This document shows, piece after piece, positions 648-60,400 of a DNA stretch of 64,000 bases. The stretch covers positions 50,158,001-50,222,000 of the forward strand of contig OZ024742.1 of NCBI GenBank assembly GCA_964016885.1. The letters run 5' to 3'. The number at the start of each line of letters is the position of its first letter. The first letter of the stretch is position 1. Position numbers and translations under genes: made by a program. The notes beneath the pieces are model-generated. The model did not search any database and was not told the origin of the DNA. It was given only the letters and a program-made list of their open reading frames with translations. The DNA comes from Eledone cirrhosa. Lineage: Eukaryota.

Positions 648-2015
648 TCAAACATACAGACCTAACTAGCAATGAAATGCACATTATATTATCGGCAAGG
701 AAAACATTGATAGAATTTAATAACCAACTATGGACTAGGGCAGATAGAGATAGTAATTTCGACATTACTATGGGATCATCTGACTCAGCTCAGGTAACGG
801 ACCTTGTGGGCCTATTTATAATTAATTCGCTGCATAGAAAAATACCTGGTGTAACCGGAGGATTATATCGTGATGACATGCTTTTAGTTATTGAAAATAA
901 TAACTCTGAACTAAATAGAAAAAGAAAACAAATTATACAATTTTTTAATTACCTTAATCTAAAAATAGAAATAGAGAATAACCATAGAATAGTCAATTTC
1001 CTAGATGTAACACTAAATCTCAACACATGTATCCATTTCACAAACTAAATGAAAACTTGAATTATGTCAGTTTTAACTCTAATCACCCCAGATCTGTTAA
1101 ACATACTATAGTGAACTCTGTTCAAGAACGTATCTCAAGAATTTCATCTCATAAAAATATTTTCGACGAAAAAGCGCAGTATTACAATGAAGCGTTAGCT
1201 AGAGCAGGATATAGTGATAAAATTATGTACATCGATAATAATAGGCAAACTAACCAATATAACAACAATTTTAATTACGGTAACAACTTTAACAACTATA
1301 ATAGAAAACACTACAATAATTCCAAAAGCCAGAAAAGAAATAGAACTAGAAATATAATATGGTTTGCCCCTCCTTTCTCACTAAATATTAAAACCCACAT
1401 TGCTAAGCTATTTTTTAATGCTCTTGACAAACGCTTCCCTAGAACACATAAATATCACTCAATTTTTAATAGACATACTATAAAATTAACTTACTCGTCC
1501 ACCAACAATTTAGCACAAAATATTAACAGAATAATAATAGGAATCTAAAACCTAGCCAAAATACCGATAATAGCCTAAACTATATTCAATTAAACAACTG
1601 TAACTGTAGAAATAAATCTAAATGTCCGTTAAATAACAATTGCTTAGTTAAAAATATAATATACAATTGTAATGTTAAAACTGACTTAAATTCTTTTAAC
1701 TATGTTGGTTCCACCTCGACAGAATTTAAACTTCGCTATAATAATCATAAGAATTCTTTCACAGATCCAGGCAAAAAATCTTCAACTTCACTATCAGGCT
1801 TACTCTGGCAACTTAAACATGATAACGTTGGATATTCGTTGTTTTGGAATATAGTCTCAAGAGGGATTCCTTTTAATTCCTCATCTGAGACATGTGAGGA
1901 GATATTCTTTATATTAAAATCTAAAAATTCCCTTAATCTAAGGAGCAATTTATTCAGTTGCTGCAGACATAGATTGAACTCAACGTTTAAATATAAATAT
2001 AAATTTAAAATGTAG
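648..2015 (+). pseudogene. Disrupted PLE RT/GIY-YIG endonuclease ORF (frameshifts near 1030 and 1540, small deletion near 1895)
   Basis: Track ORFs 248..1048 and 1027..1548 plus the continuing frame to 2015 are collinear with the endonuclease frame at 14171-14863. Confidence 0.88.
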
Positions 2016-3368
2016 TATATTTAGTTAAGATATTTATTTAATTAATTATGAAACCTGACGATAAATCTTTCGATTCCTTCAACTTTTTCTTTTTTAAACC
2101 TTCTTCATAAATATATACTAATGATGTAATTAAACTACCCTAAAATGTTGATGCTCCCAATCTATTGAATAAATTTTACGCTAGATAAACTTCTATACTA
2201 AATATAAAAGCATCTGTAGAACAACAGGGTCTCCTAAATCTTTTAAATGATTTCTGCTAAATAAGTCTTGTTGAATAATTTTGGTTTTTTGTTTGCTTTT
2301 GATTCTGATTGCTTCTAATGAACTTGGCAATATATTGTCAGATAAATTGGAAGGATTGATTTCTGTGGTTGATATGGGGGGCCAACTGTGTTTTTTTAAG
2401 GCCCCAGATACTCTAGGGAGTGATGAAAGTATTCTTAGCGTTTTGATATATTGATATCTGTTGTCTATTCTATACATGAACGATAATCATATATGTGAGG
2501 GCAGGAATATTAATATTAATATATATTTTTATGTATGTGTATGTATGTATATATATATATAGTAAAATCTTTTATAACGCAAAGGAAAATTTGTTCATGT
2601 GAAATAAGAAATTGCAGATCTGATCACGTATGTTCACGTGACAGCTCTGTAATTTCTTATTTCTATAGTGTCAACTAGAACTTGAGATGACCTTCTCTTT
2701 TTCTCTTTCTTTCTTTTTCCGGAAAGTACATATATACTTATGTATTTTTGAAGTTTTATCTCAGGTTTTGGTATATCGACCTAAGAATTTTAAACTAAAC
2801 ATATGGTCATTATTTGTTCACACATTATATATCTATGTCTCATTCATGAATATTGATATTTACAGTATAATACCCAATTCAAATATGAATTGATAATTCA
2901 AATTGATAGGACATAACGTAAAGTTGTAAATCTGTCATCCTTCTCTCTAGATATAGCTTTATTCTCCTCCCTCTATACATGATGTAATTTAAGTATCGCT
3001 GTTTTCTCTTTAGTTATTTTTTATTTCTCTCCGTCTCCTTAGCACTATAACTAAATAAATAAATAAATAAATAATTACAGTACTCCCTCCCTCCTAAATC
3101 TCTCAATTTGTATGATGAATTATTATTATTCATCTGTTGCCTCAGCTGACTCTCATTTTTCACCTCCTCACTATTTCTCTCTCCCATATCTCTCTCTATC
3201 TCTCTCTGTTTTTCTTTACATACATTTATTCCTTCTCTCCGTCTTTCTTTCTAACTGTGCTTAACACTAAATATTTACAAACATTTCACTACCAAACCAA
3301 CTTTTTAAATGGAAGTTGATCAATATTTTATGGTACGTCAAATTTATTTATAAAACTGCTTATATATT

Positions 3369-11638: not shown

Positions 11639-11718
<80 letters not shown>

Positions 11719-11755
11719 ATTAAATAAATGGAAAACTATATTTATAAAACCATAT

Positions 11756-11823
11756 TTATTTCATTATATATATTTCGGGGATATCATATTAACAATATGC
11801 TATGCCTTCATCAGACAAAATAC
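11756..11823 (-). ncRNA. Hammerhead ribozyme (family A, inverted arm)
   Basis: Reverse complement of 16381-16448. Confidence 0.83.
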
Positions 11824-12185
11824 AATATAAACAGTTTTATAGATAAATATATTCGACATACCGTAATAAACATCAACTTCATTTGAAGAGGTTCACTCTA
11901 GCAGTGAAAATACAGAGAGAAAGAAAGAGAGAGAGAAAAGAGGGAAATAAGAAAGAAAGAAAGACGAAACGAAGAAAAGGAAGAAAAAGAAGAAAAAGAA
12001 GAAATGCATGGGACAAAATAGAGAGATGGAAAAATAGATAAAGCGAAGAGCTTCATGTAAAGAGACCGAAAGAGATATATATATATAGAGAGAGAGAGGA
12101 AATAGAGATAGATACATATATAAATATAGATATAGAAAAATTAGGTAGTGGGAGGTCATTTTGAGTAAGTGTATCAATGATGCAT

Positions 12186-12220
<35 letters not shown>

Positions 12221-13322
12221 GCTCAAGTATTAATGTAAGGGAGATATAGAGAGATATAGAGAGATATAGAGAGAGAAAAATTTAAAAATAGCCAGACATA
12301 TTCGAGGCGTAGAAAACCCTATGTTTTAATGTATTAGTATTTATAAAACTTACACTATATTGTAAATATCAGTATTCCTGAATGAAACAAGTATTCACAA
12401 TGCGTGAAAATTCATTATCTTATGTTTAGTTTTTAAAAAAATTCATATGTCTATGTGAATCCAACTGATTCACTCCGCAAATTCAAAGTTACCGGAAAAC
12501 ATTCTCAATGTGGTATAAACATTTGAGCGTATTATTATTCTTGCGATTACTCTACAAGATTATCTATCAAGCAGAAATAGAGAGCAGATTTCAATATACT
12601 AATCGAAAATATATATTATATTATAAGCAGAGATAACAATAATAATGATAATAAGTAAAAATATATAAAAATATAAAAATATAGAATAGAAAACTAAAAA
12701 AGAATATTACGAAAGAATATTACATAATAAAAATATTGCATATTAAAAATACTATGTTTTAAAATTATTACGTATTAAAACTTTACATATAAAAATATTA
12801 AAAATAAAAATAAAATAAAATAAAAAATAAAAAATAAAAATATAAAAATATTATAGAATACTACAATACTAAAAGAATAAAAATAAAAATAAAAATAAAA
12901 ATAAAAATAAAAATAAAAATAAAAATAAAAATAAAAATAAAAAATAAACCACAAAGAACAACCCTTCAAGGTTAATTGACAATATATTGCCAAGTTCACT
13001 ACAAGACAAAGCCAAAAATTATCTATCAAATCACATCTAGCAAGGAATATCGCAAAAAAAAAAAAGGTTATGATGTCCAATAATGTCTACATATGTTCCT
13101 ATATTTAATATATAAGTTTATCAAGTGTAAGGTTAATTCATAAAATTTGGAGCATCGGCTTTTAGGGTAGCTTAATTTTTCATGAGGAATGTTTAGATAA
13201 AAATAAAAATAAAAATAAAAATAAATACAATAAAATAAACAGTAAAAAGAGGGAATCAAAGATTTAGGAATCAAAAGATTTATCGGCTAGTTCTCATATA
13301 AATATAAATCAAACTAAATATA

Positions 13323-14023
13323 CTACATTTTAAATTTAAATTTATATTTAAACGTTGAGTTTAATCTATGTTTGCAACAACTGAATAAATTTGTCCGTAG
13401 GTTAAGGGAATTTTTAGATTTTAGTATAAAGAATATCTCCTCTGCGCAGAGGTCACATGTCTCAGAGGATGAATTAAAAGGAATCCCTCTTGAGACTATA
13501 TTCCAAGCCGTCGAATATCTAACGTTATCTAGCTTAAGTTGCCAGAGTACACCTGATAGTGCCGTTGAAGATTTTTTATTTGGATCTGTGAAAGAATTCT
13601 TGTGGTTATTATAGCGAAGTTTAAATTCCGTCGATGTGGAACCGACGTAGTTAAAAGAATTAGAGTCAGTATTAACATTACAATTGTATACTATATTTTT
13701 AACTAAGCAGTTGTTATTTAACGGACATTTAGATCTATCTCTACAGTTGCATTTGTTAACTTGTATATTATTTATGCTATTATCAGTAGTTTTTAAGTTC
13801 CTATTATTTATTCTATTAATATTTTGTGTTAAATTTTTGGTGGATGAATAGGTTAATTTAATTGTATGCCTATTGAAGATTGAGTGGTACCTATGTGTTC
13901 TAGGGAAGCGATTATCAAGAGCTTTGAAAAATAATTTAGCGATGTGGGTTTTAATGTTTAGTGAGAAAGGGGGGGCAAACCAAATTATGTTCCTAGTTCT
14001 ATTTCTTTTTTGTCCTTTGGAAT
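13323..14023 (-). pseudogene. PLE GIY-YIG endonuclease C-terminal ORF fragment (inverted arm)
   Basis: RNIIWFAPPFS..CNCRDRSKCPLNNNC..NIVY..YVGST..FKLRYNNHK..CDLCAEE..CCKH; open frame but 5'-truncated. Confidence 0.9.
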
Positions 14024-14180
14024 AATTCCATAGGACAAAAATAATTCCAAAGGACAAAAAAGGACAAAAAAGGACAAAAAGACAAAAAGACAAAAATAAT
14101 TCCAAAGGACAAAAAAGGACAAAAAAGGACAAAAAGACAAAAAGACAAAAAAGGACAAAAGGACAAAAAAGGACAAAAAA
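14021..14180 (+). repeat. Templated micro-repeat spacer: 14 x (G)GAC-A4-6 with three ATAATTCCA re-entries and an exact 55-bp duplication
   Basis: Every unit derives from the element's own aataattccaaaggacaaaaaa word; 14041-14095 is identical to 14096-14150. Confidence 0.92.
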
Positions 14181-14863
14181 GAAATAGAACTAGGAACATA
14201 ATTTGGTTTGCCCCCCCTTTCTCACTAAACATTAAAACCCACATCGCTAAATTATTTTTCAAAGCTCTTGATAATCGCTTCCCTAGAACACATAGGTACC
14301 ACTCAATCTTCAATAGGCATACAATTAAATTAACCTATTCATCCACCAAAAATTTAGCACAAAATATTAATAGAATAAATAATAGGAACTTAAAAACTAC
14401 TGATAATAGCATAAATAATATACAAGTTAACAAATGCAACTGTAGAGATAGATCTAAATGTCCGTTAAATAACAACTGCTTAGTTAAAAATATAGTATAC
14501 AATTGTAATGTTAATACTGACTCTAATTCTTTTAACTACGTCGGTTCCACATCGACGGAATTTAAACTTCGCTATAATAACCACAAGAATTCTTTCACAG
14601 ATCCAAATAAAAAATCTTCAACGGCACTATCAGGTGTACTCTGGCAACTTAAGCTAGATAACGTTAGATATTCGACGGCTTGGAATATAGTCTCAAGAGG
14701 GATTCCTTTTAATTCATCCTCTGAGACATGTGACCTCTGCGCAGAGGAGATATTCTTTATACTAAAATCTAAAAATTCCCTTAACCTACGGACAAATTTA
14801 TTCAGTTGTTGCAAACATAGATTAAACTCAACGTTTAAATATAAATTTAAATTTAAAATGTAG
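14171..14863 (+). pseudogene. PLE GIY-YIG endonuclease C-terminal ORF fragment (direct arm)
   Basis: Mirror of 13323-14023, with LAQN instead of LTQN; no start codon. Confidence 0.9.
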
Positions 14864-15983
14864 TATATTTAGTTTGATTTATATTTATATGAGAACTAGC
14901 CGATAAATCTTTTGATTCCTAAATCTTTGATTCCCTCTTTTTACTGTTTATTTTATTGTATTTATTTTTATTTTTATTTTTATTTTTATCTAAACATTCC
15001 TCATGAAAAATTAAGCTACCCTAAAAGCCGATGCTCCAAATTTTATGAATTAACCTTACACTTGATAAACTTATATATTAAATATAGGAACATATGTAGA
15101 CATTATTGGACATCATAACCTTTTTTTTTTTTGCGATATTCCTTGCTAGATGTGATTTGATAGATAATTTTTGGCTTTGTCTTGTAGTGAACTTGGCAAT
15201 ATATTGTCAATTAACCTTGAAGGGTTGTTCTTTGTGGTTTATTTTTTATTTTTATTTTTATTTTTATTTTTATTTTTATTTTTATTTTTATTTTTATTTT
15301 TATTTTTATTTTTATTTTTATTTTTATTCTTTTAGTATTGTAGTATTCTATAATATTTTTATATTTTTATTTTTTATTTTTTATTTTATTTTATTTTTAT
15401 TTTTAATATTTTTATATGTAAAGTTTTAATACGTAATAATTTTAAAACATAGTATTTTTAATATGCAATATTTTTATTATGTAATATTCTTTCGTAATAT
15501 TCTTTTTTAGTTTTCTATTCTATATTTTTATATTTTTATATATTTTTACTTATTATCATTATTATTGTTATCTCTGCTTATAATATAATATATATTTTCG
15601 ATTAGTATATTGAAATCTGCTCTCTATTTCTGCTTGATAGATAATCTTGTAGAGTAATCGCAAGAATAATAATACGCTCAAATGTTTATACCACATTGAG
15701 AATGTTTTCCGGTAACTTTGAATTTGCGGAGTGAATCAGTTGGATTCACATAGACATATGAATTTTTTTAAAAACTAAACATAAGATAATGAATTTTCAC
15801 GCATTGTGAATACTTGTTTCATTCAGGAATACTGATATTTACAATATAGTGTAAGTTTTATAAATACTAATACATTAAAACATAGGGTTTTCTACGCCTC
15901 GAATATGTCTGGCTATTTTTAAATTTTTCTCTCTCTATATCTCTCTATATCTCTCTATATCTCCCTTACATTAATACTTGAGC

Positions 15984-16018
<35 letters not shown>

Positions 16019-16380
16019 ATGCATCATTGATACACTTACTCAAAATGACCTCCCACTACCTAATTTTTCTATATCTATATTTATATATGTATCTATCTCT
16101 ATTTCCTCTCTCTCTCTATATATATATATCTCTTTCGGTCTCTTTACATGAAGCTCTTCGCTTTATCTATTTTTCCATCTCTCTATTTTGTCCCATGCAT
16201 TTCTTCTTTTTCTTCTTTTTCTTCCTTTTCTTCGTTTCGTCTTTCTTTCTTTCTTATTTCCCTCTTTTCTCTCTCTCTTTCTTTCTCTCTGTATTTTCAC
16301 TGCTAGAGTGAACCTCTTCAAATGAAGTTGATGTTTATTACGGTATGTCGAATATATTTATCTATAAAACTGTTTATATT

Positions 16381-16448
16381 GTATTTTGTCTGATGAAGGC
16401 ATAGCATATTGTTAATATGATATCCCCGAAATATATATAATGAAATAA
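16381..16448 (+). ncRNA. Type I hammerhead ribozyme (family A pLTR)
   Basis: tattttgt-CTGATGA(16390-16396)-aggcatagcatatt/gtt/aatatgatatcccc-GAAA-tatata-TA-atgaaata; palindromic minimal stem III. Confidence 0.85.
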
Positions 16449-16624
16449 ATATGGTTTTATAAATATAGTTTTCCATTTATTTAATATTGTAAATATACTC
16501 CAAGTATTTGTCGAGTGCTTTTATATCAGTTATAAATATTTACTAGTTGTAACCCAACAATTTTAAATATAACTTTACATATATATATATATATATATAT
16601 ATCACGATAAACTAACGGAGCACT

Positions 16625-18233
16625 AGACATATATGATGATGCAACGCTGGGCGGGCCCGTACAGACTATCTGCCATTACCTACATTTGGTGGTTCCTGCC
16701 CTGGCAGGAATCGGCCTTCAAGACAACTCGGCTAAGTCACAGGTGGTGAACGTCAGCCACGATGCTGAGAGCTTTACAGCCTCCGTCTCGGACTCGCGGT
16801 CCATTCTCCACCAGGTACAGGTGACCGCTAAAGAGGATGTGCTCATACTCGTGTCAGCAATCCACTCGCCGGCCATCCGCTCCACCATCAGGTCCAGGCT
16901 TCAACAACTCCAGACAATCACGAGCCGACTGGGCTTGATCGACGGCCACCCAGCCATCTTTCTGTCGAGGAACTGCTTCGCCATACCGAAGCTCCTCTAT
17001 ACCCTTCGCAGCGCTCCGTTCTACACTCACACATCTTTCCTCGCTGACCTCGATACTTGTATCCAAGAAGCAGCCGAGGAGATATGTAACGTCAAGTTTG
17101 ACGTCATTGGATGGCAACAGGCCGCCTTACCTATCAGGTATGGCGGCCTTGGCCACCGGTCCCCGATCTCACTGGCTTTGCTGGCGTATCTTTCGTCGGT
17201 AACCTAGTGCCGCGTCCTCGTCAGCAGGGTTCTCAAAAACACAATAGAACCCTTTGTGTTCCGAGAACGTGAGGCCGCCTGGGAGACGTGGGACCGGCTG
17301 GGACGCAGCCCAGTAGTCGTCCCTCCTACTTCTGCCCCTGTTGACGTCATGTCCCACCAAAGCACTTGGGATGCCATCCAGTGCAGCCTGGCCTCAGACA
17401 GGCTCACGCGCCAGCTCGAACACCACCGCCTTGCCTGTATTCGTGCGGCCTCCAAACCCTACAGTGGTGCCTGGCTCCATGCCCTGCCCTCCTTCTACAC
17501 TGGCACGCAGCTAGACAACAATAGCCTGCGCATTGGCGTTTCCTTGAGGCTCGGCCTCCGGGTCTGTGAGCCACACCAATGTCGCTGCGGATCCACCGGG
17601 GACCCTTTCGGCCTCTACCCGCTTTCCTGTCACCACAGTGCCGACCGCCTGCCACGCCATGCTGCCCTTAACGAGGTCATAAAGCATGGCTTGGACGTTG
17701 TAGGTTTTCCTTACCAGCTCGAGCCGGTGGGGGTGGACCGAGGGGACGGCAAAATGCCAGATGGCATGACCATCTTCCCGTTCCGTGGTGGTAAACTTCT
17801 CGTCTGGGATGCCACTTGCACCGACACTTTCTGCAGCCGCAACCTGGTGTAGTCTGCGATTAACTCGGGTTCTGCTGCACGTCGTCGGGCTAAGGAGGCT
17901 AAACTCCTCAAATACCGGTATCTCTCCGACAAGTTTGCGGTTGTACCCCTGGCAGTGGAGACCTCTGGTGTCCTTGGCCTCCCTACTCACCACCATAGGC
18001 GCTGAGCTGGCCAGCCGTAGGTGTGAGCCCCGCGCGTTGGAGTGGATTTTCCAGCGCGTCTCCCTTGCTGTCCTCCAGGGAAAGGCCTTCTCCATTCTGA
18101 CTGCCGAGGCTGTGGCGGAGCCCCATCGCGTATCATTCCATATTTAGTTGTGGTGGGCGTGCGTGTGTGTTTGTATATATCGCTTTTGTTTTCATTCATC
18201 ATCATGTCATTCTTCATTGCTTTTCTCTACTAA
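16625..18233 (+). mobile_element. CRE-like non-LTR retrotransposon, 5'-truncated (RT YxDD, Zn knuckle, restriction-like endonuclease), several stops
   Basis: YDDATLGG, QQAALPIRYGGLG, SGAWLHALP, CRCG..C..RHAALN, GKMPDG..LVWDATC, VPLAVETSG, FQRVSLAVLQGKA; GC-rich; lies in (TA)n. Confidence 0.82.
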
Positions 18234-57486: not shown

Positions 57487-60400
57487 TACATCCACCTTAG
57501 AGATGCCGTCAATTCTGATGTTGACCCAAGAAATATTGGCCAGCCAGTCATAATACCATCAGGCTTTACGGGAGTACCACGCAAGATGCAATGAACGTAC
57601 GCAAGATGCAATGGCCTATGTTAGAAAATTTGGTCGGCCAGATCTCTTCATTACATGCAATTCAAACTGGTCAGAAATATCAAAAACCAAAGGATCGACA
57701 TGACCTGGGTTTTCCATGAAAAGCAAAAATAGAACTCATCTGGCTCCTAAAAGAAGGAAGAATCGTTGGATGACCACTATTGAGTGGCAGAAGAGAGGTC
57801 TTCCTCACTCCCACACACTAATCTTCTGCAAGGAGCATATAAGACAAGATCATGTTGTAAACATCATTTCAGCTGAGTTGCCTGATAAAGGTGGTGATCC
57901 AGAGCTCTTTGAAACCATCAAGTCCAAACTCATTCATGGTTCATGTGGAATCATCAATCCAGCCTCTCCCTGCATGGAAGATCAAAAATGCAGCAAACAT
58001 TAATCTAGAGCTTTCATTCGGGAAACTCGGACTGACAATAATGGATACCCCCTTTATTGTAGGCGTTGACCAGAACATGGAGGCAATACTGAAAGCCTAA
58101 CATTTCGAAGAGAGGAGCTGACCATAAACAATCAGTGGGTGGTCCCAAACAACAAATTATTGTGTAAACTTTTAAAAGGTCATATCAATGTTGATTATTG
58201 CAGCTCCATCAAGGCAATCCTATATGTCAAAAAATATATCAATAAGGGCAATAACATGGCTACCTTTATTACTGACAAAGAACTCAGTGATGGTGGGCTG
58301 GATGAGGTCAAACGGTATCAAATAGGTCGATACATTTCCAGCAATGAAGCTATTTGGCGAATCTTTGGATTTGATACCCATGAACGCCATCCAAAAGTGG
58401 TCGATCTCGCAGTCCATCTGGGAAATGGACAGATAGTGTACTTCACTATGATCACTGTTCATCAGTGCTTTCTTTAAACTCTGCCAGAATTATGAATTTG
58501 CTCGATCCCTCCTATATACTGAAGTCCCAACATACTACATGTGGACCAATTGCAAGACCTGAAATCGAAGAAAGCAGGGTCATTTAGTGGAAGGTCATGA
58601 ACTCAAGTCAAGTGATTCTATTGGGCGTGTTTTCAATGTCCATCCCAACAACAGAGAATGTTTTTATTTACGGCTACTTCTGCATAATATTCGAGGACCA
58701 ACATCATTAGAGGATCTTAGGTGCTTCAGAGGATGGGAGCGTGCAACATACGAAGAAGCATGTAACCAGCATGGACTGCTGCATGAAAATGGACACTGCA
58801 GGAAGTGCCTAGAAAAAGCAGCACTCACTCAAGAAGCCAGTCAAATAAGACAACTATTTGCTATTATGCTCACAGCATGTAGATTGATGAAGCTCATCTA
58901 CTCTGGCAGGATAACAAAAACAATATGTCGGACGACTATCTACACCTATCCCGAAGACATGATGGCAATATGTATATGGAATGTACCCCCCAGGATTTAC
59001 AATCAAGCACTCTTCTGTGACCTGTCCTATCGAGTTCAGGCAATGAATAGCACATTAGCTAACTGCGGGATGCTAGAGCCAGATGAAGAAATGGATGTAG
59101 CACAAGACATTTTTCAGGAGACAAACTACGATATTCAAGCATTGCGTAAGTTTGTGGATGAAAATGAACCTCGATTGATGGATGATCAGAAATACACCTA
59201 CCACATCATCGAAAACATTCAAAATGACAGGGGAGGACTTTTCCTCATCGATGCTCCTGCTGGCGCAGGCAAGACATTCCTAATAAACGACCTGCTTGCA
59301 AAAGTTCGCCAAAAGCAACATATTGCCCTTGCTGTGGCTTCAAGTGGCATTGCAGCAACACTTCTGGATGGAGGAAGAACTGCACACTTCATGTTTAAGC
59401 TGCCCATAGATCTCACACGGCATGAACAATCTTTTTGCAACATCAAGAAGAACTCATCCAAGGGCAAGCTTCTGCAAACATGCAAGATGATAATTTGGGA
59501 TGAAGCTACTATGAGCCATAAAGGAGCAATTGAAGCTTTGGACCGGACGATAAGGGATCTGAGAGAAAATAGTTGCATAATGGGAGGAGTTACAATGGTT
59601 CTTTCTGGTGATTTCAGACAACTCTGCATGTAATTCTTCGAGGGACTCGAGCTGATCAGGTCAATGGCCCCACTTTCAGCTGCGCCTTAGAACCAATATG
59701 CGAGTGCCCTTAACTGGTGACGAAGGTGTCAGTGAGTTTGCCATCCAACTACTTAATTTGGGAAATGGACTTCTTGAAAGGGACTCCAATGACCATATTC
59801 AGTTGTCATTTGGCAATAGCATTGACACAGAGCAAGAACTGATTGCCAGAGTGTTTCCAAACATTCAGACCAAGCAATGTGATCCGAAATGGCACTGTGA
59901 ACGAGCAATCTAGAGCACCTAAAAATGTTGCTGTGAATGAAATCAACAGAAGGCTGCTTGAAATGTTACCGGGAGAGAAAATATGCTACAAATCAGTTGA
60001 CACAATCCCTTCTCAAGACAAGGTTGTAAACTATCCAACTGAATTTTTGAACAGTCTTGAACAAGCGGGAATTGCTCCACACAACCTAATACTGAAGCTT
60101 GGAGCATCGGTTATGCTACTGGATCCTCCAAAACTTTGTAATGACACAAGTTGCAATCATGTCAGTAAAATTTGCTGGTGACAATTGTTTCATTCCCAGA
60201 ATACCTCTGAAGCCAACTGATTTGCCATTTGAATTTCAAACACTTCAATTTCCGATCAGGGTCAGTTTTGCCATGACCATCAAGGGAAATCATTGAAAGT
60301 CATTGGGTTGAATCTGGTAGATCCTGTCTTTTCACATGGTCAACTCTATGTTGGTACAACAAGGGTTGGGAACCCTGATTGTCTCTTCATTGTGGTACTA

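Follow-up and report, generated by a model that had tools for sequence, protein, structure and literature searches.

The DNA analysed here, referred to as the window, is a 64,000-nt stretch (G000:C3:50158001-50222000) taken from a 3.0-Gb genome. It carries a near-perfect palindrome (11715-16491) formed by two 5'-truncated copies of a PLE placed head to head within a (TA)n microsatellite, with the right arm running on to 16580. The arms flank a 144-base spacer consisting of 13 re-copies of the word that opens the right arm. Over about 2.3 kb, a single substitution and 18 nt of (TTTTTA)n distinguish the arms. The top strand of the left arm ends in ...TTTGGAAT at unit position ~2036 and would represent the first cDNA. 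The features of the locus are as follows.

650..2390, plus strand: diverged and older member of a related PLE subfamily, the comparison copy of an earlier note on this DNA
11642..11714, no strand assigned: (TA)n target microsatellite, left
11715..14023, minus strand: left arm, a PLE copy truncated at the 5' end and terminating 3' at fixed site 1
14021..14023, plus strand: AAT microhomology, where the top strand switches from antisense to sense
14024..14167, plus strand: inserted array, 144 nt, 13 re-copies of unit positions 2032-2054
14034..14151, plus strand: exact 63-nt repeat with a period of 55 (14034-14096 = 14089-14151)
14168..16580, plus strand: right arm, a PLE copy truncated at the 5' end that runs through the tail to fixed site 2
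14171..14863, plus strand: PLE ORF, 3' portion, with the CxCX5C linker, an endonuclease of GIY-YIG type (VYNC...YVG), CxxC, and CxH
16390..16431, plus strand: putative hammerhead-like core motif (CTGATGA...GAAA), a motif reading
16475..16489, plus strand: site 1, read through in the right arm and the stopping point of the left arm; a duplication hot spot elsewhere in the genome
16490..16580, plus strand: tail of about 90 nt from site 1 to site 2, on one arm only
16580..16603, no strand assigned: (TA)n target microsatellite, right

A full copy of the element (L031) has a 4012-bp unit with a 738-aa ORF, in which the RT motifs (YRDD) come first and the endonuclease last. Read by motif, this endonuclease (IVYNC...NYVG, with one Cys between the motifs) is C-terminal and without CCHH. 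The linker CxCX5C is present as CNCRDRSKC, CxxC and CxH (CDLC and CKH) lie around conserved E and N, DKT stands in place of DKG, RWR is found where Hydra has RWK, and insertions target (TA)n. In the accessible text of PMC8557442, the Hydra clade is characterized by a C-terminal GIY-YIG, DKT, CxCX5C, CxxC, CxH, no CCHH, and (TA)n targets. Judged by these motifs rather than by an RT tree, the PLE matches the Hydra clade, with whose members, as described in that part of PMC8557442, it also shares the inverted truncated copy and the tail at one end. It differs from them in the length of the unit (4.0 kb here, generally under 3 kb there) and of the tail (about 90 nt here, 30-40 nt there). The earlier note had spoken of a Naiad RT. 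Naiads carry the GIY-YIG endonuclease N-terminally, before the RT, whereas that of the 738-aa ORF is C-terminal; therefore, the Naiad assignment was rejected. The Pfam search of the PLE ORF gave no match, and the Rfam search returned nothing relevant, the hammerhead core included; our ribozyme search recovered the CTGATGA...GAAA core, around which stems I and III could not be defined. Numerous young copies make up the family, with 4527 exact matches to the tail and 5266 plain ends at site 1. The T-run in its 3' UTR (15119-15131 and 13063-13075 in the window) ranges from 5 to 50 nt among loci, and one arm of L047 ends within it. Fragments of other PLE-like families, recognized by eye from linker and endonuclease motifs, were seen in the flanks of L047, L080, L088, L098, L124, L129, L132, L136, L138, and L143.

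The array contains three long entries beginning TAATTCC..., and its remaining units read GGAC or GAC-A4-6. The three re-entries of the word reported in the earlier note were borne out, with ATAATTCCA at 14022, 14041, and 14096. Its count of 14 GAC-A(4-6) units (14034-14180) is also correct, but as a count of inserted units it falls to 13, since the 14th (14171-14180) is the native word of the right arm. The units are irregular, with lengths of 8-20 nt, three start points, and runs of 4-6 A, and the first is mismatched (ATAGGAC instead of AAAGGAC). Unit boundaries fall in A-runs, as had been noticed before, with the short alignment words AAAG and AA. The reported identity of 14041-14095 with 14096-14150 is exact and was refined to a 63-nt run with a period of 55. 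A five-unit block repeat arises by independent cycles with a probability of 0.004-0.015. It is therefore probable, as the earlier note proposed, that the array was copied also from its own product.

To place the array in the family, we compared it with other copies of the element. The copy at 1315-1338 is indeed unrepeated, but it belongs to an older subfamily (reading ...ttccaaaagccag...) and is a poorer control than loci of the same subfamily. Among 30 same-subfamily loci fetched, the word was single in 30/30 and the array was absent from all. The genome has 378 exact matches to the native 34-mer that contains the word, whereas the doubled word has five matches genome-wide, every one inside 14024-14167. 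The array as part of the family sequence, which the earlier note had named as one of the findings that would count against its reading, was therefore rejected. It is also the longest insert among 147 resolved joints of the family. In Logan contigs, an 85-nt unitig matching the 55-nt cycle without mismatch was found in 4/4 runs, which derive from two samples of one study with the assembled individual as their possible source. Its length (55 + 30) is that expected for the cycle of a 55-nt repeat. These contigs cover 14034-14151 only, the left joint and the full spacer being spanned by no record, and RAD-seq run X12 and run X1 were uninformative, having no cover over the array centre. The array is real and unique in the genome, and these results support its origin de novo, as a reiteration templated locally at the joint left by 5' truncation of the PLE.

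The arms of the family end at two fixed positions about 90 nt apart, both in (TA)n. In the first set, 65 of 88 joints had both ends classifiable, and 64 of them were site-1/site-2 pairs, the sole exception (L048) being a misread site-2 arm. Seventeen further insertions, chosen independently of the tail, gave 15 such pairs, one site 2/site 2, and one site 1/site 1. Thus, 80/82 classifiable insertions were site-1/site-2 pairs. The longer arm ended at site 1 in 26 of the 64, at site 2 in 20, and the arms were equal in 18. In a 350-nt stretch, arms differed by a mean of 0.3 within an insertion and 4.3 between insertions. The two arms of one insertion can, however, differ at shared polymorphisms, as the symmetric arms of L036 do at a common one, and the length of the 3'-UTR T-run was unequal between the two arms in 14/19 insertions. 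A pure one-cDNA snap-back as the source of all palindromes was rejected for at least 26/64 insertions, because the site-1 arm is the longer in 26 and the arms of L036 differ at a common polymorphism; the single arm difference in the window is private and decides nothing on this point. The head-to-head palindrome is the normal insertion of this PLE family. The fixed pair of ends suggests that each insertion is primed twice, and we infer that it consists of two target-primed cDNAs joined at their 3' ends.

In L1, twin priming with two primers reportedly yields an inversion. L1 inversion is occasional, and its second primer anneals at variable sites, whereas here the inversion is near-obligate, the two starts are fixed, and the product is head-to-head. 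PMC8557442 lists among its open questions how PLE inverted repeats and the one-sided tail arise, and an earlier reading of the inverted structure, in PMC3846280, was self-priming on an antisense template. According to the main text of PMC11167929, another PLE protein (PAc Poseidon) nicks and extends both target strands in vitro, AT-rich targets are used, and two internal RT start sites delimit the tail. There, the two sites are not tied to the arms of one inverted insertion, unlike the 80/82 found here. The site-1/site-2 pairing is a simple, testable answer consistent with that in vitro result, and no statement of it was found in the main texts of the mainly open-access literature consulted. 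This family-wide pairing is a more useful result than the array itself. The family offers thousands of young copies in which each centre records natural end joining between two defined single-stranded ends. Of 294 arm ends, 79 fell within unit positions 150-249 (L031:5110-5210), near a small predicted hairpin, so that many insertions are MITE-like, short palindromes whose arms measure about 185 nt. These positions may possibly represent the RNA 5' end or a strong RT stop.

The 147 resolved joints, collected after 9/94 and 7/69 candidates had been dropped as diverged subfamilies or unrelated elements, comprised 75 with microhomology, 16 blunt, 16 with 1-4 extra nt, and 40 with at least 5 nt. 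Microhomology of at least 2 nt was seen in 54/91 insert-free joints (22% expected). Inserts of at least 8 nt parsed to local templates in 25/34 cases, compared with 6.7 (maximum 12) when templates were swapped; six of the 34 (L076, L116, L246, L338, L358, and L371) are probably subfamily variants or arm continuations. Curation by eye of the 147 joints gave direct re-copies of the arm end at 20, and the recurrence of locally templated reiterations that the earlier note proposed to look for was thus seen at other joints of the family. It also gave eight multi-round joints (seven direct and one inverted), duplication of the chimeric left/right joint at three (L078, L329, and L367), inverted copies at two (L347 and L106), and capture of non-adjacent sequence at three, including L143 and L335. 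At L329, 68 nt were re-copied across a joint without microhomology, the arm end is present in two inverted copies at L347, and L367 shows a left-right-left-left-right alternation. Non-element DNA was captured at two symmetric centres: in L143 (6221-6339) it comprises 119 nt that match a repeat also present in L128, and in L335 (6390-6445) it has 35 nt with a match to a repeat of L326. Element RNA cannot template the joint repeat of L329, the inverted copies of L347, or the capture of L143. The joint classes match the spectrum of theta-type end joining, and several of them need a DNA template, as does the 63-nt re-copy of the array; the array is likely the longest example of a recurrent end-joining scar. 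Inserts of at least 50 nt were found at 4/31 symmetric joints and 2/116 others (p 0.018), a post hoc comparison that includes two non-local inserts. Reiteration goes with the joints: private insertions inside the arms numbered two in about 160 kb of aligned ORF, and the word of the array was without repeat in 376 other copies.

As a control, 5' junctions of a young CR1 family (2853 copies in the same genome) were examined. From 100 loci, 64 junctions were retained. Left out were two loci skipped as reference and duplicate, one without a 3' end, 26 in which the copy was full-length or extended beyond the locus, and seven with a complex or deleted 5' end. No element-end re-copy of at least 10 nt was found at the 64 CR1 5' junctions, whereas such re-copies were present at 21/294 PLE arm ends in the raw count (p 0.019 vs CR1) and at 15-18 after curation (p 0.05-0.08), CR1 being an imperfect control in GC content (44% vs 29%) and in having one cDNA end rather than two. 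The initial smaller comparison (8/170 vs 0/64, p 0.11) was not significant. The PLE-specificity suggested in the earlier note is therefore weakly indicated against this imperfect control, and the result keeps open a role of the PLE RT. Side observations at CR1 loci were a possible host-side 10-nt duplication at the junction of L209, complex 5' ends at L158, L162, and L166 (5' inversion, rearrangement, or a 37-nt piece of the element's own downstream sequence), and an internal block of ~65 nt repeated three extra times or once at L152 (2397-2976) and L180 (1144-1381).

On balance, we regard it as probable that the array arose through repeated priming on DNA templates during the joining of the two cDNA 3' ends, with host polymerase theta as the probable enzyme. 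In (TA)n, the family inserts as a pair of truncated arms, of which one ends at site 1 and the other at site 2. Both target strands would be nicked, each priming its own cDNA, which would leave two facing single-stranded 3' ends halted at about 2036 and 2032. The left end would then pair through AAT with the right cDNA, copy 10-22 nt into the A6 run, release, and re-prime at AA, AAAG, or GA. Given the near symmetry of the ends, the newly made sense DNA would fold onto its own strand (predicted at -12.4 kcal/mol for the first copied segment) and be stripped from the template, favouring more cycles; in this model, the symmetric geometry offers a possible reason for the length of the array. Both extended ends may subsequently have re-annealed out of register, producing the 55-nt repeat, and a final priming would have read through and sealed the palindrome. 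The genome has a POLQ gene, with polymerase theta exons at G000:C23:21159745-21166969 (minus strand).

Polymerase theta yields iterative, flank-templated, inverted, and distant inserts, with junctions documented in flies, in worms, and in vitro (PMC2895639, PMC5068794, and PMC4912351). The array and its sister joints share with these the short microhomology, direct inserts copied from the flanks with errors, repeated rounds, and a minority of inverted or distant inserts; they differ from the typical theta scars described there in that both joined ends are retrotransposon cDNAs and that 13 rounds and 144 nt are far longer. PMC3280974 further reports extra nucleotides added by polymerase theta at the cDNA 3' junctions of a retrohoming intron, and inserts copied from the flanks are likewise described at LINE and group II intron 5' junctions, where cDNA 3' ends are joined (PMC4245944 and PMC3280974). 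Against theta, one might expect a pathway of the host in general to leave its mark on CR1 also (0/64), and the three long entries share a boundary at 2032-2034, as a telomerase-like template boundary would. The enzyme cannot be named from sequence, and RTs too jump between templates. The likeliest reading of the array is an ordinary end-joining scar in an extreme form.

The array locus alone, a direct tandem repeat without polarity, cannot separate the models; any single direct re-copy fits an RT slip on RNA equally well, and error positions in the inserts, inspected by eye as a polarity test, gave no clear direction. In the mechanism favoured by the earlier note, the RT stalls at the word and slips back on the RNA in a telomerase-like manner; later replication slippage would have to be added to account for the 55-nt repeat. 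The boundaries in A-runs with the alignment words AAAG and AA, the boundary shared by the long entries, and the neighbouring arm ends (L364 at 2030 and L109 at 2048), which may mark a pause, agree with it, and the U-run differences between arms (14/19) together with 41 short duplications at site 1 indicate that slippage occurs in this family. It resembles telomerase and DRT10 (PMC12632851) and the 3' slippage of L1 and I factor (PMC3415434), as outlined in the text available for both, in the succession of extension, release, re-annealing on a short word, and re-extension. Those systems, however, use a fixed RNA template, make regular repeats, and act at the start of synthesis, whereas the array has irregular units of 8-20 nt, lies at the end of a long cDNA, and is partly copied from its own product; thus, regular repeats from a fixed RNA template, with all product RNA-templated, are not what is found here. 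Slippage is moreover expected to drop with a longer RNA:cDNA hybrid (PMC3415434), and the hybrid here would be 2.4 kb. The word was passed without repeats in the 376 other copies, the 63-nt re-copy would need a separate second event, and slippage on RNA cannot produce the joint-spanning, inverted, or captured inserts of the sister joints. As the 63-nt re-copy, L078/L329/L367, L347/L106, and L143/L335 need DNA or foreign templates, we consider this mechanism improbable, and the alternative that the earlier note also named, iterative templated insertion in end joining, fits better. Rather unlikely is that the PLE RT itself joins the cDNAs, its 3' end oscillating between the partner cDNA and its own RNA and so writing repeats. 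Re-copies look enriched at PLE relative to CR1 junctions, the alternation at L367 is as expected from one growing end switching between RNA and partner, both target strands are extended in vitro by another PLE protein with a predicted dimeric form (main text of PMC11167929), and group II intron RTs can switch to DNA templates (text available for PMC3280974). But the exact repeat of the joint without microhomology at L329 requires the joined duplex as template, the entire joint spectrum agrees with published theta junctions, and the intron RT jumps in that same text of PMC3280974 gave short, mostly A additions, unlike junctions in vivo.

Two further readings concern the palindrome rather than the priming. 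Long palindromes are subject to breakage at the centre, and a near-perfect 2.3-kb palindrome could have formed first and been broken later at the hairpin tip, with host repair writing the spacer. The longest inserts do lie at symmetric joints, but most templated inserts are at asymmetric joints (24/34 of the inserts of at least 8 nt), spacer-free symmetric joints persist (L036, L043, and L046), and the near identity of the arms implies that little time has elapsed since insertion. We regard this sequence of events as very improbable. That the array is an assembly or library artefact, from a fold-back read or a consensus error, is hardly credible: long palindromes are error-prone in assemblies and no read record spans the whole spacer, but the 55-nt cycle is present in 4/4 short-read runs and the arms stop at different fixed sites with different flanks, as in the rest of the family.

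A better candidate than the array for RT slip-back, and the best in this family, is a 10-14-nt duplication at site 1, found in 41 places genome-wide, with one triple copy (L252). The duplication lay directly against (TA)n in 24/41 places and otherwise in up to 17/41. In 10/10 insertions where the partner arm was visible, it was without the duplication, which is therefore not inherited. The same search gave 0 for a control motif in the tail and 2 at site 2. The TA word recurs 12 nt on at site 1, as an alignment region would. However, the up to 17 places away from (TA)n and the three inspected duplications that lie within site-2 arms make a staggered endonuclease cut with fill-in a live rival. 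Slippage at the 3' end is known for L1, I factor, and R2 in the part of PMC3415434 consulted, so that slippage at site 1 would not be telomerase-specific. An unlikely but broader reading is obligate double TPRT, in which an RT dimer would start cDNAs at sites 1 and 2 on opposite strands of a (TA)n target and itself join their ends by iterative template jumping, with telomerase-like re-priming at site 1 and the array as the longest product. If the RT wrote the array or the site-1 duplications, these would count as evidence from in vivo events that reiteration lies within the capacity of telomerase RT's closest relative. Loci with the site-1 duplication include L246-L255, L034, L046, and L048.

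Elsewhere in the window, a broken non-LTR retrotransposon fragment (16611-18147, plus strand) adjoins the insertion. Its Pfam search gave no match, and it carries what we take to be zinc-knuckle and PD..D endonuclease motifs. An ORF for a PIF1-like helicase (58563-59633, plus strand; E 8e-45) possibly belongs to a Helitron.
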